Shown here: piece after piece, positions 5,378 through 64,000 of the stretch
How positions within the stretch are numbered: position 1 is the first letter of the stretch
Layout of the letters: each line of letters starts with the position of its first letter
NCBI GenBank assembly: GCA_012295275.1
Contig: CM022677.1
Location: 11,160,001 to 11,224,000 of the forward strand
Length of the DNA: 64,000 nucleotides
DNA from: Chrysomallon squamiferum
Taxonomy: Eukaryota; Animalia; Mollusca
Direction: 5' to 3'
Notes under the pieces: generated by a model
What the model was told of the DNA's origin: nothing
Databases searched by the model: none
What the model saw: the letters and a program-made list of their open reading frames with translations, nothing else
Made by a program: the position numbers and the translations under genes

Positions 5378-7562
5378 TGAAAAAGAGTGGATAGATGGTA
5401 GATGATAACAGACAGGTAACTTGGTAGACAGAAGAAAGATAAATAGATTACTAGAAAGATAGATAGATGCAAGGAGACATCAGTATACACCTGTACAACT
5501 GAAAGAACGACGGACTCTGTTGCTTATGTATATGGCATAAACAGATAAATAAATATATTTATAGATAGATAACTAGGTAGAAAGAGTGTATTTAAATACT
5601 TAAAAAGGATGTAAATAGAGAGAGTGAATACGTGTGTGTCTGTGTGTGTTTGTGTGAGTGCAAGATAGACTGCGGCTATGTATAACTCAGAAGGTGAGAT
5701 AGATTGATATAGAGATAGTTAGACATCGTTTCAGAGATAAATTGATATGTTAGGTAGACAATAATTAGGTACATATGTAGATAGATATATACAGCTAACA
5801 TAGACAAACTGATGTGTATGTGTATGCATAAATATATGTGTTTTTGTGGATTTATGAGAGTCAGATGATTCATAGAGAGATAATAAATAAATATATGAGT
5901 GAATAGATTTATGTGTATATATATATGTGTGTGTGTGTTAGAGAGGATAGATATAGATGGATGGATGGACACACACACACGAACATATACACCATATAAA
6001 CAACATACATAGGTACATAGCTACATAGGTTCATAATCATGAGTATTTTTATTTATGTCAGAGGATTGATATATAACTGAATGTATGAATAAGACTATGT
6101 TTGTTTATATGGGTGTTAGATTGCAGTTAGATAGCTAGACTGAGAGAGACTGATATGTAGGTGTGGTTATATGTGTTTGTGTGTTATAGAGAGAGAACAG
6201 GTATTGACCTCACTAGGAAACAGAGAAGTATGCCATGTGTGTATGATTTTTCAGATATAGATACAGACAGGCATATAGACAGGCATATAGACAGGCAGAT
6301 ATATAGATATAGACAGGCATATAAATAAATATAGATATAGACAGACAGACAGACAGAGGATAGTGATGAAAAAATGGTTAGCTAGACAGGTAATGGACAC
6401 ATGTATATGAGTAAGAAAATCATATGATTTCTTCATTAAAGTCTGTTTCTATGTTAGAAAGAGGTGAGCAGGTGCGAGATTAAGCTAAACCACAGGTTCA
6501 CCAATAAATAGATAGATAGATAGAAAAATAGCCAGAGAAATTGATGATGAAATAAAACAAATATATAGATAGACCGATAGATATATAGAAACATGCAGGT
6601 AAATAAGGATGGATGGAGTGTTAGATGGAGGGATGGATGAAAGTTTTGGTGCAAGCAAGAACTGTGCAAATAATAAAAGGATAAAAAGACGGAAAGATGG
6701 ACTGAAAGGTTTTCAGTTATATCAGACATTATTACATTGGTAACAATGAGGTCCTCATTGTAGGTTCATGGATTGAGTGATATATCAATGGAATTTGGTT
6801 TAATATATAAACTGTGAGAGAGAGAGAGAGAGAGAGAGCAGGTACAAAAAGTGAAGCATTTTATAGATAGAAAGTCTGACAGCCAGCTAGATTGATACAT
6901 TGAAACACAGAGAGCAGACACATTTAAAAATGTATTTAACAATGACAGTAAATTTTGGAATAAATGATGAAATATTTTAATATTTGATATAAAGAATTGT
7001 CAAAAGACATCACCTTGAAAGACTGAGTATATTGAAATGTCTTGTGTATTCTTAGCTTCTAGGAATTATTTTACTATTAATATGTCATTGATAATCCAAA
7101 CAAAAACTTTCTGTCCACTGGTCTATCCCCTATGTCCATCCACCATAATGCTTTCTCTAAAATGTCCCTATTTGTATATCTTCCTGTGTGTATGTCTGCT
7201 GTCTGTCTTTCAATAGACAGATACACAGACAAACACATCTATCTACCTACGTATGGATGAATAAATGTTATCTCTGTCTCTTTACCTCTCTGTTTCTCAA
7301 TCTGTCAGTCAAGCAGTGTGGAACTGTCTGTGTGCCATTCTATGTACCTACCACTCGGTCTATCTGTCAAATTACATATTACTCATAATTTATCCAAAAC
7401 TATAGTTGAACATTTTTGGGTGAATACAAGATTTTCACTTATATTAATTTGCACACAACAGGTTTTATTCATCTATTTCTCTATCAGTCTATATGTAATG
7501 TTCTAAATCTGTCCTTCTAGGTTTCAATCTACAAATCAATTTACTGCCAGTCAGTGTGTATA

Positions 7563-8205
7563 TCTCTTTATCTATCTATAAAACACATACACAAACATAA
7601 TTCAGTCTAATTCACATAATCATTACCATCTCTTTATCTATCTATAAAACACATACACAAACATAACTCTCTAATTCACATACTCATTACCATCTCTTTA
7701 TCTATCTATAAAACACATACACAAACATAATTCAGTCTAATTCACATACTCATTACCATCTTTTTATCTATCTATAAAACACATACACAAACATAACTCA
7801 CTCTAATTCACATACTCATTACCATCTCTTTATCTATCTATAAAACACATACACAAACATAACTCATTCTAATTCACATATTCATCTCTTTATCTATCTA
7901 TGAAACACATACACAAACATAATTCAGTCTAATTCATATACTCATTACCATCTCTTTATCTATCTATAAAACACATACACAAACATAATTCACTCTAATT
8001 CACATATTCATCTCTTTATCTATCTATGAAACACATACACAAACATAATTCACTCTAATTCACATACTCATTACCATCTCTTTATCTATCTATAAAACAC
8101 ATGCACAAACATAATTCACTCTAATTAACATACTCATTACCATCTCTTTATCTATCTATCTAACACATACACAACCATAACTCACTCTAATTCACATACT
8201 CCCAT
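7563..8205. repeat. 66-bp minisatellite, ~10 copies (some 60-bp variants)
   Basis: Unit tctctttatctatctataaaacacatacacaaacataattcagtctaattcacatactcattacca starts at about 7563, 7629, 7693, 7759, 7825, 7885, 7951, 8011, 8077, 8143. Confidence 0.95.
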
Positions 8206-27783: not shown

Positions 27784-27916
27784 TACATTATCAAAATTTG
27801 TTACATAATTAGCTTTAGGAATGATAAAACAGATTGAATCAAGAAAATTCACAAATAATATATTTTATTTTGGTTACATACTATAATAATTTCAAATTCT
27901 TTCTTTTCTTCCCCAG

Positions 27917-28030
27917 CTTTCCCATGCAGCCTTGATCTTTCTGAAAGGGGAGATAATCGAGCTGTACAACAGATTGGCACATGTAATAGCCGAAAGAGAT
28001 CAGTTAGAAAAACAACTGACTGAATGTCAG
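27917..28030 (+). CDS. MCC: MCC exon LSHAALIFLKGEIIELYNRLAHVIAERDQLEKQLTECQ
   Basis: ccccag acceptor, cag|gtaaga donor; matches human AALASLKGDIVELNKRLQQTERERDLLEKKLAKAQ. Confidence 0.9.
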
Positions 28031-28667
28031 GTAAGAATTTTTTGTTGTTTGTTTTTGTTGTTTTAGTTTTATTTTTTTTATCCTAGCATTAAACTGTGAA
28101 ATTAAATATCCAGCTCACTTTTAATGTTGTTATTCTGGTAACAGTAATAAGAAGATAGCCTGGCTAGAAAATAACATGTTTGGCAATAACTCTTGGTGAT
28201 GATTTAAAGTTATTCAGGCTATCTTTCTGGTAAAGATTTAGAAAATATTTATGTTAAATTTGTGATAATTAAATTTAAATAAAAAAAAGAGTTTTAATTT
28301 ATTATTTATTAACTTGCTTCCTTTTTTGGTTATTTGTGTATTTATTTAATTATATATTTATGATGTTTTATTAATCAGACACATAGCTTTATTGTCTTTA
28401 TTCAGATGTAAAATAATACCATATGTTTGCTGTTCTTCACTGTTTTTAAACACATAATGAAACAATTGTATATATAATGTCAGAAACAAAATGAAACATA
28501 GTATTTTGTCTTTATTCAGTTATAAAATTATACCTTTAGCTTGCTGTTAATCACTGTGTTTAATGAAAGACAAAGAAATAACTTCTAGAAATTTGTTGAA
28601 AATACCAAATTCCAGAAATGAGAAAAGACATTTGAACATTGTCTTTTTTTTCTTCATTTCTGTGTAG

Positions 28668-28759
28668 AGAAGAAGATGAGTTTGAAGACTTGGACAAAAG
28701 CAATAATGGAGGAAGTATCAATGAGAATAATACAAATGGCTCCCAATCTGCGAGTCCTG
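28668..28759 (+). CDS. MCC: MCC exon (R)EEDEFEDLDKSNNGGS...SASP
   Basis: tgtgtag acceptor (phase 2), g|gtaatc donor (phase 1); matches human IREEDEY. Confidence 0.8.
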
Positions 28760-29181
28760 GTAATCATTTACTTTTATATTTATTTTTTGACTGTGCAGTT
28801 ACTGATTATTTTAGTCTGTTTTTGATAGAGATCCAATTGTTTTAAAAGTTTATTCATTTTAATTTACTGTATTTAATATATATATAATACAATGTGTGGG
28901 ATTTTTTAAATATTAAATTACAATCATTTTTTTAAATGTTTAATTTTTCTCATTTACATACTGTTAAAAGGAATTAAAAAAAAAATACCAAATAATCAGT
29001 CAATCAGTTAATTTGATTAAATTTGAAAAAAAGATGAAATTTACAAATAAAATTAAAATTCACTTCATGTTCTATTTATTCTTTAATTACTAAATAAATA
29101 ACCATTTATCCACAACATTAAAACTGAGAATAATTATAAATTAACTTAAGAAATAAAATATATATATTATTTATTTCTTAG

Positions 29182-29654
29182 AAATAGGTAATGAAATAAA
29201 CGCAGAACTGGAGTCAACCATTGCAGAAAGAAAAGACTTTCCTCTCCACAATGTGTCTGATGATCACAACGACATTCAGTGTCTCAGGGAGGACGTTGAA
29301 AAAGACAACGCCGAAAGTCAGCTCCTTCAGAGCATCGGCAACAACAGCGTGCAGCAGCTGAGAGACAATGGCAACAGCAACAGCCTCGATGACAAACTGG
29401 GAGACAATGAGGACAGCAGTGAATCTCCTCACACTATCCCACCTCGAGAACCACGCAATGTCCCATTCCACCCACCTCCTCCACCTCCGCCTAACAGGGT
29501 CCCATACCCAGAGTACCTGCAGGAGGAGGTGAACTCACTGCGAGTAGAAAACAATGCTCTACAAGAACAGATAGGCGGACAGGAAATAGAACTTTTGCAG
29601 CTATGTAGCCATATTGAATATATCAATGATGACAGGGAGAAGTTGAAAAGAAAG
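29182..29654 (+). CDS. MCC: MCC exon with proline tract and coiled coil ...EVNSLRVENNALQEQIGGQEIEL...DREKLKRK
   Basis: Open for 473 nt; ttcttag acceptor, aag|gtaact donor; matches human ELAGLREENESL...EERDRLRRR. Confidence 0.9.
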
Positions 29655-29779
29655 GTAACTCTGCATAAATATTAAACAATGGTTATCATTTACATTTTTT
29701 TATTTGTAGATAGAATTAAAGCACAAAACATAAGTGGTCTTATTTATTTTAGATTCCATTTTTCTTCAGTTATATCATA

Positions 29780-30012
29780 TGTTACATTTGAAAGAGTTAC
29801 AGGATAAATTGTTGCATTTTTGTTACTGTTGAAAGAGTTAGAGGATAAACTCTTAAAAACATTTTTGTTACAATTGAAGGAGTTACAGGATAAATTGTTA
29901 CATTTTTGTTACAGTAAAAAGAGTTACATGATAAACTGTTGCATTTTCAGTGCAGTTTAAAGAGAGAATAAATTGTTACATTTTTGTTACAGTTGAAGGA
30001 GTTACAGGATAA
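29780..30012. repeat. ~40-bp degenerate minisatellite made of the MCC splice acceptor and first codons
   Basis: About 6 copies of catttttgttacagttgaaggagttacaggataaattgtta; the last copy is the functional exon start. Confidence 0.85.
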
Positions 30013-30102
30013 GTTACCTCTGACAGATTTGTCTTCTAGTCCCATGAACAGTCGAACATCAACACCAACAAAGTCACAAGTGAATCCTAATACAGGAGAG
30101 AG
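29993..30102 (+). CDS. MCC: MCC exon LKELQDKLPLTDLSSSPMNSRTSTPTKSQVNPNTGE
   Basis: ttacag acceptor, ag|gtataa donor, phases fit both neighbours; matches human VRELQTRL...INPSTGE. Confidence 0.85.
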
Positions 30103-30425
30103 GTATAAACAAACATTTCTTATATTCCTAGTAACCAAGGAATCAGTGTAGACAGACATATTTGTTTGTTGTGTTTATGTTTATTTTTATAAGTGGAACT
30201 TTGAGAATATACAAATTCAGGAAATAAAGAATTGAAAATGGATATATTATATGCAAAAACTTATTATTATTATTATTATTATTATTATTTTTTTTGTTTT
30301 TTTTATTTTGTATAAATATTTTTTTTTTATTATTTAAGTATATATAAAATGATTTTATTTATTTTATTAGTTATTTATTTATTTATTCATTTATTTTTAT
30401 TTTATTTATTTATTTATTTATTGAT

Positions 30426-30460
<35 letters not shown>

Positions 30461-30471
30461 TTAATTCACAG

Positions 30472-30583
30472 GACCACTGCAGGCAGTGATCAGTTTCCTG
30501 TAGCTAAAATAGCAGAACTGAAGAAACTAAAAACATGTGCTGGAGACAGACAGATTCTTGGTGCTGAAATTACCTCCCTTGGG
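30472..30583 (+). CDS. MCC: MCC exon TTAGSDQFPVAKIAELKKLKTCAGDRQILGAEITSLG
   Basis: tcacag acceptor, ggg|gtaaat donor; matches human IPIAKIAERVKL...DRPVLGSEISSIG. Confidence 0.92.
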
Positions 30584-30994
30584 GTAAATCTCATTTAACA
30601 TCATTTTAATCTGTTGTAAAGCATTTGTTAATTCATTCATTTTTATTATTATTTTTATTAAAAATAATTTCCAGTATGTAAATTTAGAGGAATTTTACTG
30701 AATTTTTGCTAATATTAGATACATTAAAAAATAACCACACACATGCAACACACACAAGAACACACATTTTAGCAAATTTATAATTAATGCTTAACACATT
30801 TAAATGTTAAATTGGAATATACTGACAATATATTTTGATAATTTCCAGTATAAACTGAATTAATGTTTCAGTTCACAATTGTTATTTGACTGATAACTGT
30901 AGTGCAAAAATATGAAGAAAAATAATGAGCACTGATACTGAATAACTCAATCACAATAATTTTCATAATTTCCAGTATGGTGTTTTAATTTATT

Positions 30995-31045
<51 letters not shown>

Positions 31046-31630
31046 TAATTCAGTCATGTCACCTGAGAATAAATTAAACTGACATAAAATTATTCATTGA
31101 CAGTATTTTTCAAAATCTCAAGTGTGAATTTAACTGATTCTTAAATTTAAAAATGTTTTCCAACTACAATCATTCCAAATGAAATACATTTTATACACCC
31201 AAATAAATACATTTTTAACAAGAACTCAGGATTATTATTCATTATTTTTCATGATTTTTAACCCTACATGTTTTGCCCTATGGTAATACTGTTTCAAATC
31301 AACTAAAATAAATATACATTTTTGAGAAAATAACACAGAATAAGTCATTGATATATTGTTTCTCATGACATCTGATATGAATTTAACTGTTTTTAAAGCT
31401 TGCTTATGTTTCTATCACCTTTCAAATCATCTAAAACAAAGTCATTTTTAAACAATAACACAGAATAAGTCACTGACATATTATTTTTCATGACATCTGA
31501 TATAAATTTAACTTATTTTTAACCTTGCTTATGCTTCTCGCCCTGTATAATATCCTTTCACATCATTTTTTAAACAGTAACACAAAATAAATAACTCATT
31601 CATACCAATTTTTCTCAATTTCTTCTTCAG

Positions 31631-32024
31631 CTTCCAATTACGAAATTAGCCGAACATTTAGTGCAGAGTTTACAGGGCTGTTCTAACATGCAGGAAATTG
31701 TTCAGACTTTGTACAAGTGTGGTTCTGAGATAGGAGAAACCAAAGTGAAAGAGTTTGAAATTGAGTTTGAAAGACTTCAGAGCAAAATTGACCACCTCAA
31801 GTCACAGAATGACTTGGCTAACCTGACGCTGAATGAGAGCAAGTCCTACTCGGAGAGGTTGACGGTGTTGATGGGGAAGTATGAGTCTAACAACACAGCG
31901 CTGCAGTTGGCTATTAACTACTCTGATCAGATGATAGAGGCGTATGAAGTGTTGTGTGTTCTGCTGGAGAGTGAGATGGGAGTTTTGTTAGCTAACTGTA
32001 GAGCTGCAGGACTTGGAAGTCTGG
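31631..32024 (+). CDS. MCC: MCC exon, conserved central coiled-coil region
   Basis: LAEHLVQSLQGCSNMQEIVQTLY...KEFEIEFERLQSKIDHLKSQNDL...GKYESNNTALQLAINYSDQMIEAYE...RAAGLGS; cttcag acceptor, g|gtgagt donor. Confidence 0.95.
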
Positions 32025-32181
32025 GTGAGTTACAACTAAAATTCTTATTTTAAAATATATTATTTCAGTAATTGCTACATCACTGAAATTCAATCTTTTT
32101 TATATGTAAATGAAGTTAATTTTTGTATATGTGTGTGTATATATCTTTACAATTTCAGTATTAGTGATTATTAAAAACAGA

Positions 32182-32223
<42 letters not shown>

Positions 32224-32429
32224 CCATTTATCATCTACAAATTCAGCATTTAAGTAATTTTCAGTGTGCATGTATTTCATTTCAGTAAGAAGGATTTAAT
32301 TTCAGTGTGTTACTTTTCTGTATGTGTAATGTTAACTTTCAGTGTGTGTAGCTGTTAATACATAGACACTGAAATTAGCCTAATGCATAGTATTATATTT
32401 TATATCTGTGTATTTTAATGCAAGTTTAT

Positions 32430-33146
32430 TTTAAGTAAGTGTGTATATTAATACAGAAGTGTATTTTCTGTTTATTTTCAGTAAGTGTGTATATTAATAC
32501 AGAAGTGTGTTTTCTCTGTGTTTATTTTCAGTAAGTGTATATATTAATACAGAAGTGTATTTTCTCTGTGTTTATTTTAAGTAAGTGTGTATATTAATAC
32601 AGAAGTATATTTTCTCTGTGTTTATTTGTTTTATTCAGTAAGTGTGTATATTATTACAATTTCAGTAAGTGTATTTTCTCTGTGTTTATTTTCAGTAAGT
32701 GTGTATATTAATACAGAAGTGTGTTTTCTCTGTGTTTATTTTCAGTAAGTGTGTATATTAATACAGAAGTGTGTTTTCTCTGTGTTTATTTTCAGTAAGT
32801 GTGTATATTAATACAGAAGTGTGTTTTCTCTGTGTTTATTTTCAGTAAGTGTGTATATTAATACAGAAGTGTGTTTTCTCTGTTTTTTTTTCAGTAAGTG
32901 TGTATATTAATACAGAAGTGTGTTTTCTCTGTGTTTATTTTCAGTAAGTGTGTATATTAATACAGAAGTGTGTTTTCTCTGTGTTTATTTTCAGTAAGTG
33001 TGTATATTAATACAGAAGTGTGTTTTCTCTGTGTTTATTTTCAGTAAGTGTGTATATTAATACAGAAGTGTGTTTTCTCTGTGTTTATTTTCAGTAAGTG
33101 TGTATATTAATACAGAAGTGTGTTTTCTCTGTGTGTTTATTTTCAG
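32430..33146. repeat. 50-bp minisatellite, ~13-14 copies, ending at an MCC acceptor
   Basis: Unit tttattttcagtaagtgtgtatattaatacagaagtgtgttttctctgtg with exact 50-bp period at 32691, 32741, 32791, 32841. Confidence 0.95.
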
Positions 33147-33338
33147 CTGATGAGTCAGGGGAGTGTGAGGATCAGGTGGAGGTGACGTCTATACTACAGA
33201 GAGCTCATCACTCGAGGAAGTCTGCTGAAGGCGAGGCTCAACATCTACTTCACAAACTGGACAGAAGCTGTGGAGTTCACACCACACCCTGTACTTCTCA
33301 CCCTGGGAGGATCTGTCTTCTAACAGCAGAACTGCAAG
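33147..33338 (+). CDS. MCC: MCC exon with 1-bp deletion near 33301
   Basis: ILQRAHHSRKSAEGEAQHLLHKLDRSCG, then PWEDLSSNSRTAS in a shifted frame (human QPWESLSSNSHT). Confidence 0.88.
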
Positions 33339-33822
33339 GTGATGCTTTACTTGAAGTCTTTTTGTGTTACATGGACTTTGTTTTCTATTATTTTATATTT
33401 AGTTTTGTAAGTACTGAAACTCACTTTATTAATTAATACACTTTGTTTTTCACTACTTCAAGGTGATATTCTGCTTTTGCTTTGTTTTTATACTTTACTA
33501 TAATTACTTTTCTGTCTAAAGAGATTTTGTCTTTAGCATTTTAATTATTCTTTTAAAATTGTCTTTATTTTATACATTAATAATTTGTTTTTCAGTAATT
33601 AACCTAAATAATTAAAAAAAACATAGTTTTGCATCTGACAGGGATTTTTTTTAAAAAATAGATTTTGATTTTGCAGTAGTCTACAGTCTATTCTGTAATT
33701 TAATTATCTTTTTAAAAGGATTTGACCTAATTAGAGAATTATAAATTTCAAGTGCATTAACTTATTTTTTCATGGCTAGTGATAATCTTTACAAAACCAA
33801 CTTTTCATTTTGAATTGTCCAG

Positions 33823-34056
33823 CACGTCCAGTTCTACGGCCAGCTCAGTGGACACTGACTTCACCAAACTGGATGAACAGAGACTGCGTGAGTACATTCA
33901 GTCACTGAAGAATGACCGGGCAGCGGTCAAATGACCATCATGGAGCTGGAGAGTTTACATTTTGATCCTCTGCTTGATGAACCCAAGAAAACTCCAGAAG
34001 CTCAAAGACTGGATTTGGAAAATGCTGTGTTAATGCAGGAGCTGATGGCTATGAAG
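33823..34056 (+). CDS. MCC: MCC exon with 1-bp deletion near 33930
   Basis: TSSSTASSVDTDFTKLDEQRLREYIQSLKNDRAAVK, frameshift, then MTIMELESLHFDPL...QRLDLENAVLMQELMAMK; aag|gtcagt donor. Confidence 0.92.
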
Positions 34057-34529
34057 GTCAGTGTTACTAAATGTGTTGTTCTGTCTGTATAAAAATTCCT
34101 TGCTGCTAATCTTAAAAGAGAATAACCCATTATTTTTTGTGAACAGGAGTCTTCTCTCATTGTGTTTGTGTTTTTAACAATTTGAATAAATTAATATAAA
34201 AATTGTCTTCTATTTTTGTGTTATATTATTTCTTTTCATATTCTTTTACTAATAACACTTTGGACTTTGTTTTATATGTATTATTATGTTCTTTCTCTGT
34301 ATTTAAAAATATTTTCTGGGATTCTAGACAGATTTGTTCTTAACACTGGAATAGCATATTATTAAAACTACCTTGATGTCTTGTACTCTATTAACTAGTA
34401 TTTCTGTTCTTTTGATTTTATTAATGACACTTTGGTCTTTATTTTGAATCATGCTCTTTTTATATTAAAACATTTTCTGAATTCTGGACAGACTCAATTT
34501 ACTCACCTTGTTGTAATTTTGTTTTTCAG

Positions 34530-34707
34530 GAGGAGAAGGCAGAGCTGAAGGCTCAGAACTACTTGATGGAGAAGGAGAAGGGAGCTCTGGAGTTGAGACT
34601 GAGTGGTAAGGAGTCACAGGAGCAGGCCTACAGAGTACAGATAGAGCATCTCAAGTGTGAGATCTCAGAGCACCAGCAGAGACTGGGCAGAGACGGCAAA
34701 CACAAAC
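34530..34707 (+). CDS. MCC: MCC exon EEKAELKAQNYLMEKEKGALELRLSGKESQEQAYRVQIEHLKCEI...
   Basis: tttcag acceptor; strong match to human EEMAELKAQLYLLEKEKKALELKLS...EQAYLVHIEHLKSE. The donor c|gtgatt is out of phase with the next exon. Confidence 0.9.
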
Positions 34708-35635
34708 GTGATTATCTCTATTTTATTTATCACTTTATCTCTTCTAAGTTAGACAGTATATATATATAATTATATAAACAGACTGGGCAAACACAAACAT
34801 GTGATTTTCTCTTACTTTATCTAGCAGTTAGACAGAGATATATATATATATATATAAATATAATATAGGGGAAACCAAATATAATTTTCTCTTAATCTAT
34901 AGTTAGACAGAGATAATTATATAAACAGGGAACAAATATAATAATAACATACACAGTAGATATGTCACATTATTAATTTTATTATTTATCACATATTTGT
35001 GTGTTTTAAACCTGATTTAAAAAGAGAAAAAAATCTAAATAATATTTATAGAATATGTGTGTTTATTTCATTATGTAAGTAGTCTAAATAAAGTGACTTG
35101 TTCATATAAACAGATAAAACCAAATAATACAAACTTACTATATCATGTCATAACTACTGATACTGTTTATCACAGTTCTTTATTATAATTTTAAATTGTA
35201 TCTTTCTAAGAATACTGAGTGTAACAGAATGTAATAATAATAGGTAATAATGATAGGTTATATCATAATATTGATTTTGTATGCCATAACCACTGATACT
35301 CTTTTTCATAATTACTTTTAAAATTTTAAATGTATTGTTATGATAATAATTAATTGAAAACCTTTTTATTATTAAATTTTAAATGTTTTAAATTTTGATT
35401 CATCAAGGTGTTAAATTAAGGAACAGACAACATTCATAATTCTAATTTTATTATATAACTGAGTTTCAATCATTTAATCTGATAATTACTTATGATAATT
35501 CTATTGATATAAATCATTACAATTTTAATTCTATTATTATAATCAAGTTTTCATTGATTATCATCATGTGAAAGATGATAATTTCATAGCTTTTATAATT
35601 ACTAAAGTTCTAAATGACTAATCATTTATCATCAG

Positions 35636-35857
35636 GATGATGAAGATGATGAGCTGACAGTGCCATCTATCTGTGAGTTGAGATTGAATGATGTGATGGA
35701 GATAGCTCAGGACCTGTGTGTGTCGCTCAGAAGAGAAAAAATGACTCAAATTCAGAGTACAAGAGTTAGTGGCTGCTCTAGAGAAAATCTCTAAAAACTC
35801 AGAAATCAGACATCAGCAGTCAGCAGAGTTTGTCAATGACCTGAAACGAGCTAACAG
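35636..35857 (+). CDS. MCC: MCC exon with +1 frameshift near 35741
   Basis: ...SLRREK, shift, LKFRVQELVAALEKISKNSEIRHQQSAEFVNDLKRAN; ag|gtaaac donor. Confidence 0.9.
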
Positions 35858-41559: not shown

Positions 41560-42640
41560 GGAGGTGTTTGTGTGCTTGCTGAAGAGTGGAGAGGTCTGTT
41601 GTTGCTTGTTGTGAAAGAGTGGAGAGTGTGTTACTGTGTTGTTGTGAAGAGTGGAGAGGCCTGTGTTATTGTGTTCTTGTTGTGAAGAGTGGAGGTCTGT
41701 TATTGTTGTTAAGAGTGGAGAGTCTTGTTGTGAAGTTGTGAAGAGGAGAGGGTCTGTGTTATTGTGTTATTGTGAAGAGTGGAGAGTCTTGTTGTGAAGT
41801 TGTGAAGAGTGGAGAGGTCTGTGTTACTGTGTTTGTTGTGTCTGTGTTTGTTGTTGAAGAAGAGTGGAGAGGTCTGTGTTATTGTGTACTTGTTGTGAAG
41901 AGTGGAGAGACCTGTGTTATTGTGTGCTTGTTGTGAAGAGTGGAGAGGTCTGTGTTATTGTGTGCTTGTTGTGAAGAGTGGAGAGGCCTGTGTTATTGTG
42001 TGCTTGTTGTGAAGAGTGGAGAGGTCCTGTGTTATTGTGTGCTTGTTGTGAAGAGTGGAGAGGCCTGTGTTAGAGGGAGAGGCCTGTGTTATTGTGTGTT
42101 TGTTGTGAAGAGTGGAGAGGTCTGTGTTATTGTGTGCTTGTTGTGAAGAGTGGAGAGGTCTGTGTTATTGTGTGCTTGTTGTGAAGAGTGGAGAGGTCTG
42201 TGTTATTGTGTGCTTGTTGTGAAGAGTGGAGAGGTCTGTGTTATTGTGTGCTTGTTGTGAAGAGTGGAGAGGTCTGTGTTATTGTGTTCTTGTTGTGAAG
42301 AGTGGAGAGACCTGTGTTATTGTGTTCTTGTTGTGAAGAGTGGAGAGTCTGTGTTATTGTGTTCTTGTTGTGAAGAGTGGAGAGGTCTGTGTTATTGTGT
42401 GCTTGTTGTGTAGAGTGGAGAGGCCTGTGTTATTGTGTGATTGTTGTGAAGAGTGGAGAGGTCTGTGTTATTGTGTGATTGTTGTGAAGAGTGGAGAGGC
42501 CTGTGTTATTATGTGCTTGTTGTGAAGAGTGGAGAGTCTGTGTTATTGTGTGATTGTTGTGAAGAGTGGAGAGGTCTGTGTTATTGTGTGATTGTTGTGA
42601 AGAGTGGAGAGGCCTGTGTTATTGTGTGATTGTTGTAAAG
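41560..42640. repeat. 38-bp minisatellite, roughly 25-30 copies, degenerate at left
   Basis: Unit ttgtgaagagtggagaggtctgtgttattgtgtgcttg (e.g. 42141, 42179). Confidence 0.95.
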
Positions 42641-43361
42641 AATGTTTAAATGGTTGGTACTGTTTGGTGTTTCTTTTGTTCACTGTTGTTTTGTGTTTTG
42701 GGGATTTCTGTTGTCTGTGTGTAATTTGTCTTTTGTCATCTGTGGATATCTTGAAGCCCAAGCTGTCTTTGATTATTCCTCGATATTCCTGAAAAATGTA
42801 CCTTCCAAATGCACAGCCATCAAGTTGGTGGTAATTATGTTATAAACTGCCATTGATCAGAAAGACGCAGATGTAAATCCTTACAACTCTGTTTCCTACC
42901 AGTCAAAACTTTATATATGAGATGACACTGAGTTGATTAGTTTCAGTGTTACTGTTGCAGTATCTGCATTATTTTGTCCATTTTTTTTTTTTTTTTTTTT
43001 TTTTATCAGCTGGATCACTTCCTCCTTCAGGATTCAAATCTGTTAACTTTAATAAACATAGATTTGTAGGTGATAAAAGTCAAGTTCAGATCAAGATAAC
43101 ACTTCAGCATTTTAATTACTGCAGTTTTGTGTTAGAATAATATACATAAACTAGCTGATGAACTTTTTTTTATGATATTCACAGATAATATTTATTTTTT
43201 ATGAATTTATTCAGTTTCATTTAATGTATCAAACTCTCTCTACCTCTTGGTCTCTCTGTCTCACTCATCTCCTGCATGCATAACAACTTTCAAAATACAT
43301 ATGTATCTTTCTGTTTCTCTGTCCATTTATAACCCATACAAAAGTACTCTCTCATCACAAG

Positions 43362-43758: not shown

Positions 43759-45179
43759 GCTACTACTACTACTAATAATAATAATTAGTGAAAATTTAGT
43801 ATAAACTTATTATATTAAGTATGAAAGAAAGAAACAAAAAAGAAGAAAAATGTTAATTAAAAAAGAACAAGAAATATTTTGTTTTTGTTTTGTGATTGAA
43901 AAAAATAATACTGAAAATAAATAAATAAAAACTTAAATTTCAATAAATTCTTTCAGTGCTAAAAAAAAGAAGAAGAAAAAAAAGAAGCTTATTTGTATTT
44001 CTGTTGTTCATGAAAATGAAAATCGATATAAATATTAGAATTTAATTGATCTTATTTCCATTATTGAGTGTTCTGTAATGCGTTTTCATCTGTTTTGGTG
44101 ATGTATAATATTAATAAATGAATAGTTCTTATTGAACCGTCTGATTTTATTATTTAAATTTTTTCTATCAGATGCAAAGCCACATGTGAGTTGAAAACAG
44201 GTCTCGATTATGTCATTAGTTTTACAAATCAAAAAAGTCTACCATGTATAAACAAAATTCTGAGATGAAGTGATATAAAGACATTAACTTCATCCTTCAG
44301 CAAGCATCATAATATTATTTTAGATGTCATAATATGCAACAGTTTTGGCAGCCGGAAAATAACAAATGATCCCGAATAAATTTTTCTTTACAAAATGATT
44401 TAAATCAAGATTGATAAAAATAAATTATTTTCATTGTTTGTGTGTGTGGTATCTTAATTCTTCTGTCTTCTTGTGTTTTATTCTTCTTGTTTCTTCTTAT
44501 TCCTGTGTTTATTCATATTTCTTCATATTGTTTTAATGTTTGTGTTTTCTTTTTTAACCTATTTACCATGATTATTGTTTCTTGTTATTTTTCTACATTG
44601 TAGTTTCTTCATAATCTTCTTTTTCTTCTTTTGTGTTCCTCTTTCTGTATTTATTTTCAGATATTTTTGCAAGATTTTATAATATTACAATTTACTTATT
44701 ATTTTTCAGTCTCCGAGTTTCTCTTCATAGTTCTTATTCTTCTTTCTTTTTGTTTCTTCATATTTTAAATTCTTAGTTTTTATTTTAATATTTTTGATTA
44801 TTTATTTATTATTTAAAAAAAAATATATTATTATTATTATTATTATTATTATTTTTTTTTTTTTTTGGAATCTACTGACCATTCATATTCTTATTAATTT
44901 TCTTCTTCATTATTTTTGTTTCTTATTCTTCATTTCCTAGTTTCTGCATATTCTCTTATGTTATCATTATTTGTTATTTACTTATTTTTTCCTGACATCA
45001 CTTAAAATATACAATATTATTCCTTTTAGTTCTTCAGTCTCTTTCTTTTATCATTTTAATTTCTTTTGTTTTTTTGAATTTTGTTATCCTGCTCATGGTT
45101 ATTTAAAAAATTAGAGTTCTTTTTTTTATTATTATTATTGTATGTGTATGCGTATATATTTATATTATTATTATAATAT

Positions 45180-57909: not shown

Positions 57910-59161
57910 ATGAGAAATACTCCAAGAAAGCTAGGAACAACGCCGTTACAACGGCAACGATGATGATAGTAATAATACATTTTTCTAAAGGATTTGATCG
58001 CTAAAGGATTATGAATAATAGTTAATAAAAAGCAAAAGAATAATGGTAAATACACCTAAAACATTAGGAATAACCCCTTCACGACTGCAATGACGGCAAC
58101 ATCAAAAAAGATAATAATATATGCTGATGAGGAATAGACTTTATAAGATAAACTGAGATTAGTAAAATTTGTATTAGCAGTACGTCTGCTTACTTTATAA
58201 CCTTCTCACAAAATTTTATGCCGATAATTTAACAAAGCAAAACGGTTTATCTTTCAGTTGCTAGCAGCAGAGCTACGTGTGTTTGTTTATTCGTGATAAC
58301 GATGCCTAACAGCACCAGCAAACTGTATGTGGCAGTTACGTAATATTTTATTACCTTTATTACAGAATTCAGAGATAGAGAAGGATATTATTTTTCTTTA
58401 AAAATTGAGAAATATAAATAAATGTGCTTTTTTAAAATGTAAAATGTTTCAATGCGTCAGAAAATGGGGATATTTTATAATAAAAGATATGAACGTGATA
58501 TTTTGATAGGATGAATGCCGCGATTTACATACGGAATTTTACTAGAGAAAACCTCAATAGTGAGAAATGTTGAGTGTACACAAGAATCTTGCTACATCGC
58601 AGTTCATTGTCAGCATGCTTCGGTAGTTATAGATTTGTTCGGTATTATTCGTCATTTTCTGGCTACGAACGCGGTCGCATGTAATATGTAAAATTATTAT
58701 TATGATACAGCTGAATGACAAAATTAGTATATTTTTATATAGTTTTTGCCTCGGAAAATGTTTATAAAGGGTAGTCATTTATTGATTTATTTATTTATTG
58801 AAACTACTGTCGTAATCGATACCTGTCTTCAACTCGCACCAGACCGTTTTACTCTTGAACGACGAATGATAAAAGAAAGAATAACGTTGTAAAATAAATG
58901 TTCGCTTATTAATAATAATATTATTTATCTCCAAAACAGACATCGCAGGAAGAAATCCTACTTTCAGGAACTAGGTGTTAGATTCTAATCATGTTTATGT
59001 AAATAGTTTTCAGTTTTACAAACAATGGAAGTTTACTAAACATTTATTTCTTTTTGTTTACAGTAAAGCTGGAGAAGTAGATATAATAATCCTACATCCC
59101 AGTTTGGAAATGTGTTACGGTTTTGTTTTGTTATCTTATAAGTGGATTTAAAATCACCACG

Positions 59162-59210
<49 letters not shown>

Positions 59211-59414
59211 GTAAATATATTTTATTTCATTTTCGTTTTATTTTTATTTTTTCATTTAACAGTGAAAAAACAATTATTTAAATAAAATACATATTTTGAT
59301 GGATGTAAATAACTATTTTAAAAATGTTAATTAAATTAATAAATGAATAAACTATAATCATATTCTTTGAAAAAGATGCGCAAGATGCGCGTAGAAGAGT
59401 TGTGAAGTAAAGCT

Positions 59415-59496
59415 CATCCGATACTCTCCCAGCATTTGCTAGTGCTAGCAGAACGTGAAACGCCAGCACAACCAAATACAAGCAAAGTACTGATGA
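59415..59496 (-). ncRNA. Candidate pri-miRNA hairpin A (predicted 3p arm 59426-59447)
   Basis: Constant arm pairs in register with the divergent arm; several plus-strand C/A oppositions become G-U on minus; ~11-nt basal stem; CUUC at +19. Other copies (constant arm start): 60560, 61697, 62836. Confidence 0.7.
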
Positions 59497-59582
59497 TGTC
59501 TTTCTCTTAATGTACGTAATGCGTAACTTTTCGTCATTTCGTCGTCTACTTGCGACGGCGATGTTTCGGAAGCGTAGCTGTC

Positions 59583-59666
59583 TATTCGATAAACCTCCAG
59601 CATTTGCTAGTGCTAGTTGTGTTTTACGTCACGAGCACGAAACAAATACCAGAACGTTTAGAAATA
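59583..59666 (-). ncRNA. Candidate pri-miRNA hairpin B (arm 59594-59615, ends GGAGG)
   Basis: Stem with five minus-strand G-U pairs; CUAC at +17. Other copies: 60728, 61865, 63004 (one substitution) and inverted at 63949. Confidence 0.65.
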
Positions 59667-60037
59667 ACATATCAGGAAATTGTCTCGTACAGTTTCTGTT
59701 GAAGAAAACTAAATGTGAAGAAAGGCAAATAATACCTGAAAGCTGATGTGACTGGAGACGACGCCTGCATCTGCAACGATATTAGAAGTATCTGAAATTA
59801 CTTATACTTAGTAAATGAGGCAGTGAGCTGTCAGTGAGACTGAATGCATTTTGAATTGACTCATTGACAACCGCTAGTTATCACTTGGTTGAAACATCAA
59901 GCATTGTTTACTTAATTGGACTAATTAGAAATTTCGACGTCGAAAATTCAAATTACCAAGCGCTTTTAAAGAAGAAAAAACGGATTACGAACGAAATGAT
60001 AGCCGTGCAGTTTACGTATCGTTGTTGAAGTGCATTT

Positions 60038-60118
60038 CGTACTATACTCTCCCAGCATTTGCTAGTGCTAGTACTTTGTGACACACCAGCACAAAGAAAT
60101 GCTAGCAGAGTGCTAACG
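60038..60118 (-). ncRNA. Candidate pri-miRNA hairpin C (arm 60049-60070)
   Basis: Well-paired stem, UGUG at loop entry, CUUC at +19. Other copies: 61186, 62323 and inverted at 63491. Confidence 0.75.
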
Positions 60119-60212
60119 ATGTAGTCGTCCTAAATAAATCTGACTGCTTTTGTGATCTGTTTGCGGAAACAGCATTACTTCGCTCAAAAGGTATCGTTGT
60201 TGAAGTGCATTT

Positions 60213-60296
60213 CGTACTATACTCTCCCAGCATTTGCTAGTGCTAACAAGACGTGAAACGCCAGCACCAAGAAATACTAGCAAAGTATTAAGGACG
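60213..60296 (-). ncRNA. Candidate pri-miRNA hairpin D (arm 60224-60245)
   Basis: ~27-position upper stem with only two true mismatches on minus (G-U at every other non-Watson-Crick position), plus basal extension; CUUC at +19. Other copies: 61361, 62498 and inverted at 63316. Confidence 0.75.
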
Positions 60297-60418
60297 TGAT
60301 GGTCGTAAATAAATTTGAGTGGTGTCTTCTGTGATCTGGTAGCGGTTTGAGCATAATTTAGCTAAAAAGGAAAGGCTTTCAACCAGATGGTCGGATGTCC
60401 CAAAACGCGAAGAATCAC

Positions 60419-60503
60419 CGCAGGATTACCTCCCAGCATTTGCTAGTGCTAGCTCAGTTTACACACAAGCACGTGGCGAATACTGAGAAAAAATATGCCT
60501 GCG
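60419..60503 (-). ncRNA. Candidate pri-miRNA hairpin E (arm 60430-60451)
   Basis: Basal cgcagg/cctgcg helix closes exactly 11 nt beyond the constant arm; UGUG at loop entry; CUUC at +18. Other copies: 61567, 62706. Confidence 0.7.
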
Positions 60504-60548
60504 ATTACGTTTCGAAAGATGCGCGTAGAAGAGTTGTGAAGTAAAGCT

Positions 60549-63076
60549 CATCCGATACTCTCCCAGCATTTGCTAGTGCTAACAGAACGTGAAACGCCAG
60601 CACAACCAAATACAAGCAAAGTACTGATGATGTCTTTCTCTTAATGTACGTAATGCGTAACTTTTCGTCATTTCGTCGTCTACTTGCGACGGCGATGTTT
60701 CGGAAGCGTAGCTGTCTATTCGATAAACCTCCAGCATTTGATAGTGCTAGTTGTGTTTTACGTCACGAGCACGAAACAAATACCAGAACGTTTAGAAATA
60801 ACATATCAGGAAATTGTCTCGTACAGTTTCTGTTGAAGAAAACTAAATGTGAAGAAAGGCAATAATACCTGAAAGCTGATGTGACTGGAGACGACGCCTG
60901 CATCTGCAACGATATTAGAAGTATCTGAAATTACTTATACTTAGTAAATGAGGCAGTGAGCTGTCAGTGAGAGTGAATGCATTTTGAATTGACTCATTGA
61001 CAACCGCTAGTTATCACTTGGTTGAAACATCAAGCATTGTTTACTTAATTGGACTAATTAGAAATTTCGACGTCGAAAATTCAAATTACCAAGCGCTTTT
61101 AAAGAAGAAAAAAAAAACGGATTACGAACGAAATGATAGCCGTGCAGTTTACGTATCGTTGTTGAAGTGCATTTCGTACTATACTCTCCCAGCATTTGCT
61201 AGTGCTAGTACTTTGTGACACACCAGCACAAAGAAATGCTAGCAGAGTGCTAACGATGTAGTCGTCCTAAATAAATCTGACTGCTTTTGTGATCTGTTTG
61301 CGGAAACAGCATTACTTCGCTCAAAAGGTATCGTTGTTGAAGTGCATTTCGTACTATACTCTCCCAGCATTTGCTAGTGCTAACAAGACGTGAAACGCCA
61401 GCACCAAGAAATATAGCAAAGTATTAAGGACGTGATGGTCGTAAATAAATTTGAGTGGTGTCTTCTGTGATCTGGTAGCGGTTTGAGCATAATTTAGCTA
61501 AAAAGGAAAGGCTTTCAACCAGATGGTCGGATGTCCCAAAAACGCGAAGAATCACCGCAGGATTACCTCCCAGCATTTGCTAGTGCTAGCTCAGTTTACA
61601 CACAAGCACGTGGCGAATACTGAGAAAAAATATGCCTGCGATTACGTTTCGAAAGATGCGCGTAGAAGAGTTGTGAAGTAAAGCTCATCCGATACTCTCC
61701 CAGCATTTGCTAGTGCTAACAGAACGTGAAACGCCAGCACAACCAAATACAAGCAAAGTACTGATGATGTCTTTCTCTTAATGTACGTAATGCGTAACTT
61801 TTCGTCATTTCGTCGTCTACTTGCGACGGCGATGTTTCGGAAGCGTAGCTGTCTATTCGATAAACCTCCAGCATTTGATAGTGCTAGTTGTGTTTTACGT
61901 CACGAGCACGAAACAAATACCAGAACGTTTAGAAATAACATATCAGGAAATTGTCTCGTACAGTTTCTGTTGAAGAAAACTAAATGTGAAGAAAAGCAAA
62001 TAATACCTGAAAGCTGATGTGACTGGAGACGACGCCTGCATCTGCAACGATATTAGAAGTATCTGAAATTACTTATACTTCGTAAATGAGGCAGTGAGCT
62101 GTCAGTGAGAGTGAATGCATTTTGAATTGACTCATTGACAACCGCTAGTTATCACTTGGTTGAAACATCAAGCATTGTTTACTTAATTGGACTAATTAGA
62201 AATTTCGACGTCGAAAATTCAAATTACCAAGCGCTTTTAAAGAAGAAAAAAAAACGGATTACGAACGAAATGATGGCCGTGCAGTTTACGTATCGTTGTT
62301 GAAGTGCATTTCGTACTATACTCTCCCAGCATTTGCTAGTGCTAGTACTTTGTGACACACCAGCACAAAGAAATGCTAGCAGAGTGCTAACGATGTAGTC
62401 GTCCTAAATAAATCTGACTGCTTTTGTGATCTGTTTGCGGAAACAGCATTACTTCGCTCAAAAGGTATCGTTGTTGAAGTGCATTTCGTACTATACTCTC
62501 CCAGCATTTGCTAGTGCTAACAAGACGTGAAACGCCAGCACCAAGAAATACTAGCAAAGTATTAAGGACGTGATGGTCGTAAATAAATTTGAGTGGTGTC
62601 TTCTGTGATCTGGTAGCGGTTTGAGCATAATTTAGCTAAAAAGGAAAGGCTTTCAACCAGATGGTCGGATGTCCCAAAAAACGCGAAGAATCACCGCAGG
62701 ATTACCTCCCAGCATTTGCTAGTGCTAGCTCAGTTTACAAACAAGCACGTGGCGAATACTGAGAAAAAATATGCCTGCGATTACGTTTCGAAAGATGCGC
62801 GTAGAAGAGTTGTGAAGTAAAGCTCATCCGATACTCTCCCAGCATTTGCTAGTGCTAACAGAACGTGAAACGCCAGCACAACCAAATACAAGCAAAGTAC
62901 TGATGTTGTCTTTCTCTTAATGTACGTAATGCGTAACTTTTCGTCATTTCGTCGTCTACTTGCGACGGCGATGTTTCGGAAGCGTAGCTGTCTATTCGAT
63001 AAACCTCCAGCATTTGATAGTGCTAGTTGTGTTTTACGTCACGAGCACGAAACAAATACCAGAACGTTTAGAAATA
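60549..63076 (-). ncRNA. Further 12 candidate miRNA hairpins in array units 2-4 (A-E, A-E, A-B)
   Basis: Near-identical copies of hairpins A-E at the coordinates listed above. Confidence 0.7.
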
Positions 63077-63264
63077 ACATATCAGGAAATTGTCTCGTAC
63101 AGTTTACACACAAGCACGTGGCGAATACTGAGAAAAAATATGCCTGCGATTACGTTTTTGGGACATCCGACCATCTGGTTGAAAGCCTTTCCCGTTTAGC
63201 TAAATTATGCTCAAACCGCTACCAGATCACAGAAGACACCACTCAAATTTATTTACGACCATCA

Positions 63265-63981
63265 CGTCCTTAATACTTTGCTAGTATTTCTTGGTGCTGG
63301 CGTTTCACGTCTTGTTAGCACTAGCAAATGCTGGGAGAGTATAGTACGAAATGCACTTCAACAACGATACCTTTTGAGCGAAGTAATGCTGTTTCCGCAA
63401 ACAGATCACAAAAGCAGTCAGATTTATTTAGGACGACTACATCGTTAGCACTCTGCTAGCATTTCTTTGTGCTGGTGTGTCACAAAGTACTAGCACTAGC
63501 AAATGCTGGGAGAGTATAGTACGAAATGCACTTCAACAACGATACGTAAACTGCACGGCCATCATTTCGTTCGTAATCCGTTTTTTTTTCTTCTTTAAAA
63601 GCGCTTGGTAATTTGAATTTTCGACGTCGAAATTTCTAATTAGTCCAATTAAGTAAACAATGCTTGATGTTTCAACCAAGTGATAACTAGCGGTTGTCAA
63701 TGAGTCAATTCAAAATTCATTCACTCTCACTGTCAGCTCACTGCCTCATTTACGAAGTATAAGTAATTTCAGATACTTCTAATATCGTTGCAGATGCAGG
63801 CGTCGTCTCCAGTCACATCAGCTTTCAGGTATTATTTGCTTTTCTTCACATTTAGTTTTCTTCAACAGAAACTGTACGAGACAATTTCCTGATATGTTAT
63901 TTCTAAACGTTCTGGTATTTGTTTCGTGCTCGTGACGTAAAACACAACTAGCACTAGCAAAAGCTGGAGGTTTATCGAATA
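63265..63981 (+). ncRNA. Three candidate miRNA hairpins (D, C, B) in the inverted arm
   Basis: tagcactagcaaatgctgggag reads directly on + at 63316-63337 and 63491-63512; variant tagcactagcaaaagctggagg at 63949-63970. Confidence 0.7.
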
Positions 63982-64000
63982 GACAGCTACGCTTCCGAAA

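Follow-up and report, generated by a model that had tools for sequence, protein, structure and literature searches.

Early zygotic microRNA clusters remove maternal mRNAs in fish, frogs and flies. The miR-430 locus of zebrafish holds more than 300 TATA promoters at a spacing of about 1.8 kb, each driving two or three hairpin triplets, and for Xenopus it has been proposed that a high copy number is a means of clearance. The Drosophila miR-309 cluster is also early zygotic and clears maternal mRNAs, but it is not tandemly amplified; its members have mixed seeds. For spiralians, no such maternal-clearance microRNA factor was found established in the portions of the literature searched, beyond a remark by the authors of a Capitella teleta study (PMC8915122), who describe a tandem cluster of embryo-expressed 3p miRNAs on scaffold_488 as reminiscent of miR-430. 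Here we describe a locus of the snail Chrysomallon squamiferum, at the end of a 64,000-nucleotide stretch of contig CM022677.1 (positions 11,160,001 to 11,224,000, forward strand; hereafter the window), which we hold with high confidence to be a tandemly amplified microRNA cluster, built like miR-430 with another seed. For the whole of our preferred explanation, a microRNA array of a family shared with oysters, expressed in an early burst and acting on UAGUGCU targets, we estimate a probability of roughly 0.7. In addition to the papers cited individually, we drew on bioRxiv 2021.08.09.455629, PMC10417697, PMC12506671, PMC12479628, PMC11989308 and PMC9699675.

A tandem array of microRNA-like hairpins

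An initial annotation, made from the letters of the window, had reported 20 tandem copies of a 22-mer in units of about 1.135 kb with five hairpins each. Copy number, unit size and hairpin count all stood: a search allowing up to three mismatches found 20 copies between 59,426 and 63,970 (0 in 100 shuffles), 16 of them exact and four, all B-type, with two or three mismatches. The head-to-tail arrangement holds for the 17 copies on the plus strand; the three past ~63,100-63,157 lie on the minus strand, a flip that had been missed. Each unit carries hairpins A to E, in the plus-strand order A, B, spacer, C, D, E, with the minus strand as sense, and three full units are followed by a partial fourth and an inverted partial unit. 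Identity among units and part-units is 98.5-99.7%, and the array is still running where the window ends (64,000).

59,382-60,515, minus strand: array unit 1, 1,134 bp
60,516-61,652, minus strand: array unit 2, 1,137 bp, with a 1-bp deletion in the partner arm of its hairpin D
61,653-62,791, minus strand: array unit 3, 1,139 bp
62,792-63,105, minus strand: partial unit 4, hairpins A and B
63,100-63,157, no strand: junction, 58 bp of hairpin E (its partner arm and loop but not the mature arm) joined by short microhomologies, then the strand switch
63,156-64,000, plus strand: inverted partial unit, hairpins D, C, spacer and B, running off the window

The hairpins of unit 1 are as follows.

59,411-59,501, minus strand: hairpin A, resembling a primary microRNA; predicted mature arm 59,426-59,447
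59,580-59,671, minus strand: hairpin B; predicted mature arm 59,594-59,615
60,034-60,124, minus strand: hairpin C; predicted mature arm 60,049-60,070; apical UGUG
60,210-60,301, minus strand: hairpin D; predicted mature arm 60,224-60,245
60,416-60,508, minus strand: hairpin E; predicted mature arm 60,430-60,451; apical UGUG

A scan of metagenome contigs with a 19-nt pattern revealed a second, diverged array at a single locus, L001, of 1,767 bp with a 155-bp terminal repeat, for which reason it is read as a collapsed 1,612-bp unit. It holds ten hairpins; four of their arms were selected by the search pattern and six were found afterwards. L001 resembles the window in the hairpins (75-87%) and in one spacer block (~70%), and nowhere else. 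The comparisons of 15 hairpins given below combine these ten with the five of unit 1. A tree of the hairpins had no starred branch and offered only hints, placing B with L2/5/8 and E with L4/7/10.

The initial annotation had argued that what is selected here is an RNA fold from one strand, not a DNA palindrome, and folding of both strands agrees. On the strand that has UAGCAC... as the 3´ arm, hairpins A-E fold with z scores of -4.3 to -5.8, and none of 200 shuffles did as well, whereas A, B and D on the other strand are no better than shuffles (z -0.9, -0.5 and +0.5). Equal folding of the two strands was not seen, C and E being partial cases to which we return below. The sense fold beats the antisense fold in all 15 hairpins, by 4.8-22.3 kcal/mol, and in each of them pairing takes in 18-20 of the 22 mature bases; a fold contains 4-9 G-U pairs. 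In 14 of the 15, the predicted precursor is 58-60 nt and the loop 12-15 nt; hairpin B was mis-parsed by the script. The norm that we applied asks for at least 16 pairs between the arms (a criterion in the PMC4138081 supplement), arms of ~22 nt, a loop of at least 8 nt and a precursor of ~60 nt, and PMC11701709 gives 22-nt arms and a mean precursor of 60 nt. In pairs, arm size, loop and precursor length, the hairpins have the structure of microRNA precursors.

Their conservation has the corresponding pattern: the mature arm is kept from its first nucleotide, loop and flanks are free, and the stem is held by compensatory change. Nucleotides 1-17 of the mature arm are invariant in 15 of 15 hairpins, whereas nt -1 and nt 18-22 vary. 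Since invariance begins at U1, we place the 5´ end at this U; the predicted mature 3p product is 22 nt long, starts UAGCACUAG and has the seed AGCACUA. The microRNA-cluster reading, with strand, arm and 5´ end as first proposed, thus finds support, and the oyster homologues described below are annotated from the same base. Among the copies of the window array, three B copies differ at nt 9 and one at nt 14, with the seed intact. The partner arms had been described as diverged yet still pairing; they do pair, but they have not diverged freely, as GUAUUU and GUGCU blocks are kept. Hairpins C and D have a common downstream flank and are therefore not independent.

Covariation of the RNA fold, which the initial annotation had put forward for testing by R-scape, was assessed here by a shuffle test. 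Cells of the alignment are paired in 92.8% of cases, compared with 85.0% in shuffles, and structures slid along the alignment pair in 29-56%. Cells changed on both sides number 25, against 9.6 in shuffles (0 of 500 had as many), and in the lower stem double-sided changes occur at all five pairs.

Motifs of microRNA processing, which support a microRNA gene without being required for one, are present to differing extents. CNNC starts +19, +17, +19, +19 and +18 after the mature sequence in hairpins A-E, and UGUG stands at the loop entry of C and E, both as originally reported. Across the 15 hairpins, CNNC lies at +17 to +19 in 13 (shuffle mean 2.1, maximum 9 in 20,000), and in seven of eight lineage representatives chosen one per sequence group. 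That interval had been set from the five window hairpins; in L001 alone the count is 8/10. An apical UGUG is found in 5/15.

The family was also sought elsewhere. A model search of positions 1-59,380 of the window gave no further family hairpin (best E 0.38); a look-alike at 58,255-58,345 was rejected because it does not fold. Prokaryote genomes gave 0 matches to the hairpin pattern. In viral contigs, 18 single 17-mer matches were discarded, none having a hairpin and the best scoring 20.5 bits compared with 57-96 for real copies.

Probable relatives in oyster and Capitella

The supplements of a 2014 study of Crassostrea gigas (PMC4138081) contain at least eight unnamed related precursors on three scaffolds: m0316, m0317, m0338, m0342, m0345, m0348, m0214 and m0215. 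By eye, m0342_3p and m0316_3p are each identical to the predicted mature sequence at 18 of 22 positions; m0316_3p matches 15 window copies at 18/21, and all ten L001 arms agree with the first 17 nt of m0342_3p at 14/17. Setting aside the stretch used as the search term, which leaves 15 bases, at least 11 matches would arise by chance with a probability of 1e-4 to 3e-3 for a given sequence. Similarity extends past the mature arm: three E copies contain, without mismatch, a 15-mer of the m0317 star and loop, which in hairpin E likewise forms part of partner arm and loop, and the stars of m0316 and hairpin B are identical at 15/21 (by eye). The seed AGCACUA is present in m0342, m0345, m0348, m0214 and m0215, and m0342 and m0345 start at the same U. 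With both the seed and mature, star and loop similarity shared, the snail array very likely belongs to the same family as the oyster m0316/m0342 group, though the oyster precursors do not form a homogenised large-unit array and vary at nt 8-13 among copies. One further oyster match, m0324, proved unrelated and was dropped.

The read tables of PMC4138081 place these oyster sequences early in development. Reads of m0316_3p rise from 3 in egg to 290 in blastula, stand at 1,802 and 789 in trochophore and at 1,236 in D-larva, and are absent from five later stages and from eight adult organs. The other related rows show the same blastula-to-D-larva window at lower counts, with no reads for m0338_3p; m0214 and m0317, at zero or low in the egg, are highest at blastula, which was the next stage sampled. 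Both arms of the homologues have reads, and the notes to the table record m0316 and m0348 as failing the overhang rule. The hypothesis of an early-embryo role, raised with the initial annotation, gains support from these counts, and we consider early-embryonic expression of the snail cluster probable. A germline role, raised alongside it, finds no support: every related row among those listed in the oyster supplement has zero reads in female gonad, and an abalone gonad list that includes miR-29 contains no UAGCACU or AAGCACU.

The Capitella cluster seems to be a more distant relative. In PMC8915122, the scaffold_488 matures start UAAGCAC and so carry the AGCACUA core with the seed shifted by one base, and their 3´ halves are more diverged. 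The cluster shares 13 identical nt with oyster m0348 at the boundary of loop and mature arm and 9 nt of star with m0342, and Capitella "confident-14" has the exact seed AGCACUA with 13/22 matches (all by eye). On balance these sequence likenesses lean toward homology with the snail array. The supplement of an eastern-oyster survey gave 0 matches.

The family had been called novel, with an unrecognised seed. That is true only in part, as seed and 18/22-identical matures are in the PMC4138081 supplements and the seed in PMC8915122; all of these sequences, as seen there, are unnamed. Only m0214 and m0317 are in the accepted table of PMC4138081, dated "Oyster" and with no family name, and the identifiers of the related precursors do not appear in the main text of that paper. 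Rfam 15 has no family at its gathering threshold, the best scores being 14.8 bits for unit 1 and, for L001, 29.2 bits, the latter a generic hairpin match that falls far short of its cut-off of 74. In the MirGeneDB 3.0 supplement, which gives family names and not searchable sequences, no AGCACU/AGCACT string occurs; the names listed include MIR-1984 for Conchifera, MIR-2722 for Mollusca, and MIR-12588 and MIR-1988 for Gastropoda, the nodes to which our inspection extended. A literature search with the mature sequence returned only unrelated subjects among the matches listed, and among the papers and supplements searched we found none that joins the oyster, Capitella and snail sequences or describes a gastropod array. 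The sequences suggest that this is likely an overlooked, mollusc-wide, embryonic family whose members are in print without a name; as such it would be the foremost candidate for removing maternal mRNAs.

A putative promoter in every unit

The one part of the unit other than the hairpins that is conserved between the window and L001 is a block of the spacer upstream of the first hairpin in sense, with an alignment score of 100 compared with a shuffle maximum of 45.

59,709-59,928, minus strand: unit 1 copy of the conserved block, lying upstream of hairpin B in sense, ends approximate
60,843-61,061, minus strand: spacer block of unit 2, approximate, by unit offset
61,980-62,199, minus strand: spacer block of unit 3, approximate, by unit offset
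63,636-63,855, plus strand: spacer block of the inverted unit, the copy aligned to L001

The block keeps CCAAT, TAAACAA, TGTCA-TGAGT and TATAA, followed by a CAG/GTA site. We take these motifs to be putative promoter elements and the CAG/GTA to be a donor-like splice site. The block may thus be an RNA polymerase II (Pol II) promoter, one per unit.

Contigs from six snail runs (X1-X6) were searched, four from long RNA-seq and two, including X6, of unrecorded kind; X6 may be the source of the assembly. A 95-nt contig of X6 is identical to the spacer and has a depth of 15,792, and the lowest X6 depths among the matches listed are 19.7, 39.9 and 48.5. If these lowest depths represent single-copy DNA, the unit would have ~300-800 copies, a rough estimate. 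An AT-rich stretch at 59,275-59,374 lies directly downstream of the last hairpin in sense. At 59,374, two X6 contigs diverge from the window into sequence that ends as the 22-mer does, and among the contigs of X1 and X5 there is a variant with a different left flank; other array ends or loci probably exist.

At the inversion junction (63,100-63,157), both breakpoints use 5-7-nt microhomologies in or beside hairpin E. These resemble template switching at an inverted repeat, and could reflect either a route of amplification or an assembly artefact. The inverted arm has private variants of its own and is not a mirror image of the adjacent unit, which argues against a simple fold-back read. No strand-changing contig occurs among the matches listed for X5, X6, X1 and X2, so that the junction is neither confirmed nor refuted by them.

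Proposed function and alternatives

In the mechanism that we propose, Pol II would transcribe from the spacer promoter of each unit, in the order spacer-B-A-E-D-C. Drosha and Dicer would release the 58-60-nt precursor and then the 22-nt 3p product, and Argonaute would load this arm and repress mRNAs with UAGUGCU sites in early embryos. Hundreds of units could supply a large dose quickly after genome activation. The main targets would be maternal mRNAs, as for zebrafish miR-430; clearance, which we propose by analogy, falls a little short of even odds.

Several observations weigh against this explanation or parts of it. On the antisense strand, hairpins C and E fold partly (z -2.4 and -3.7), and nt 9 of the mature sequence is G, not the common U (a norm given in PMC11701709). 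The number of pairs with a double change, 7 compared with 5.7 in the control, is not above it; the covariation shuffles ignore relatedness, and the structure comes from the same alignment. Of the 14 hairpins with properly computed geometry, only 3 have a basal UG at -14/-13. In the PMC4138081 supplement, six of these eight oyster precursors are in the lower-confidence table, where remarks such as "too few reads" accompany them, m0214 and m0317 reach a modest ~100-300 reads per million at blastula, and expression lasts to D-larva. PMC10787124 puts the maternal-to-zygotic window of the oyster at the morula and proposes decay through N6-methyladenosine (m6A) and YTHDF. As for the snail, the RNA contigs of X1-X4, which cover the array unit, also cover the adjoining dispersed repeat and may be DNA carry-over, so they are not counted as expression. 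The promoter is predicted from conservation, and no spliced contig at the donor-like site was seen among the RNA contigs.

The alternative that survives best accepts a true microRNA cluster and gives it a role in larval development (timing or patterning from trochophore to veliger) or in tuning zygotic mRNAs, in place of clearance. We regard this as possible, if somewhat doubtful. In the oyster tables, m0316_3p is highest in trochophore and D-larva, after the blastula; the PMC4138081 authors tie novel miRNAs to trochophore-veliger organogenesis, and those of PMC8915122 suggest a function in metamorphosis. The blastula peak of m0214 and m0317 points the other way, and arrays of many copies, each unit with its promoter, would suit rapid production from a small number of nuclei.

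A second alternative is that the hairpins are seed-shifted MIR-29 paralogues, perhaps already filed in databases, with only the amplification being new. MIR-29 likewise has a 3p mature sequence starting UAGCAC, equal to ours at nt 1-6 and 8, with a similar star start (by eye), and MirGeneDB 3.0 was compared by names only. However, the seeds differ, AGCACCA in MIR-29 and AGCACUA here, with U at nt 7 in 15/15 hairpins; 9/22 bases match without gaps (by eye); and Rfam has no mir-29 match at E up to 10, so that neither seed nor precursor similarity assigns the hairpins to MIR-29. The same-seed MirGeneDB column of PMC8915122 is empty for the rows seen, and the PMC4138081 tables show oyster miR-29 in all stages and nearly all organs, unlike the related rows. 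We therefore judge this reading improbable, while MIR-29 is a possible ancestor of the family.

It is far less probable that the locus is a satellite or transposon-derived repeat in which the 22-mer is a protein-binding box and the hairpins are DNA palindromes or a source of piRNAs or siRNAs. High copy number, 99% identity of the units, the inversion junction and the repeat-rich surroundings would all suit such a repeat. A strand-specific fold with G-U pairs would not, nor would conservation between arrays that extends only to hairpins and a single spacer block, or the matching 22-nt products sequenced in a bivalve, as tabulated in the supplements cited. The chance that this is a tandem array of spliced-leader RNA genes is negligible: a leader-sized conserved 22-mer in a 1-kb tandem unit recalls one, but GT follows nt 22 in 1/15 hairpins, failing the donor test, and the conserved stretch is the 3´ arm of a hairpin present five times per unit.

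Our preferred explanation, a microRNA array of a family shared with oysters, joins the snail locus, the second array and the unnamed oyster embryo microRNAs as one family with a defined seed, so that the question of clearance can be tested now in oyster and Capitella. A family of gastropods and bivalves would add a deep node to the phylogeny of mollusc microRNAs, and would indicate that adult-biased sampling hides old families. A bolder version is speculative and unlikely to hold in full: an ancient early-zygotic family common to annelids and molluscs, which may have arisen from MIR-29 by a seed shift and been missed since it is silent in adults, would be the spiralian counterpart of miR-430, clearing maternal mRNAs through AGUGCU sites and, in the lineage of this snail, convergently expanded to hundreds of promoter-bearing units, possibly as a transcription body of genome activation.

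The remainder of the window

A gene for MCC (colorectal mutant cancer) lies at 27,914-35,855 on the plus strand, more than 23 kb from the array, and has the Pfam domain USHBP1_PDZ-bd. Its exon at 31.6-32.0 kb is 95% identical to MCC of Gigantopelta aegis and 88% to that of Haliotis; other exons are 58-97% identical, and the last 60 residues of the reference protein did not map to the window. These identities place the host among gastropods close to Gigantopelta. Compared with the Gigantopelta protein, the reading frame changes in three exons (near 33,300, 33,930 and 35,740), reflecting either a broken gene or indel errors left in the assembly. In the latter case, some of the differences between array units may be errors too.

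Adjoining the array at 57,920-59,150 is a dispersed repeat with many variant contigs in X1-X3, X5 and X6 and a 70% copy at 44,185-44,381. Minisatellites of 66 bp (7,562-8,201), 50 bp (32,424-33,146) and 38 bp (41,851-42,641) are ordinary.

Comparison with known clusters

Like zebrafish miR-430 and Xenopus miR-427, the snail array consists of repeated units that combine a putative promoter with several paralogous hairpins. In L001 (positions 376-1,563), the hairpins that follow the first one form a triplet of types, which comes three times behind a single spacer; this resembles the duplex and triplex genes of zebrafish miR-430. The pattern of conservation between the window and L001 is that reported for miR-290-295, in which only the hairpins and a minimal promoter are conserved between species.

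The seed sets the snail array apart. That of miR-430/427/302 is AAGUGCU and that of the snail AGCACUA, which implies different targets and no membership of that family; miR-430 is itself stated to be absent from molluscs. Nucleotides 2-7 of the mature sequence, AGCACU (in hairpin A, within 59,426-59,447), are reverse-complementary to AGUGCU, the core of the miR-430 seed, and the mirror-image sites that the two families would thus recognise are probably a coincidence. Clearance of maternal mRNAs has been shown for miR-430/427, whereas for the snail array it is proposed by analogy. A unit of promoter plus hairpins in this snail would represent an independent origin of the miR-430 architecture.

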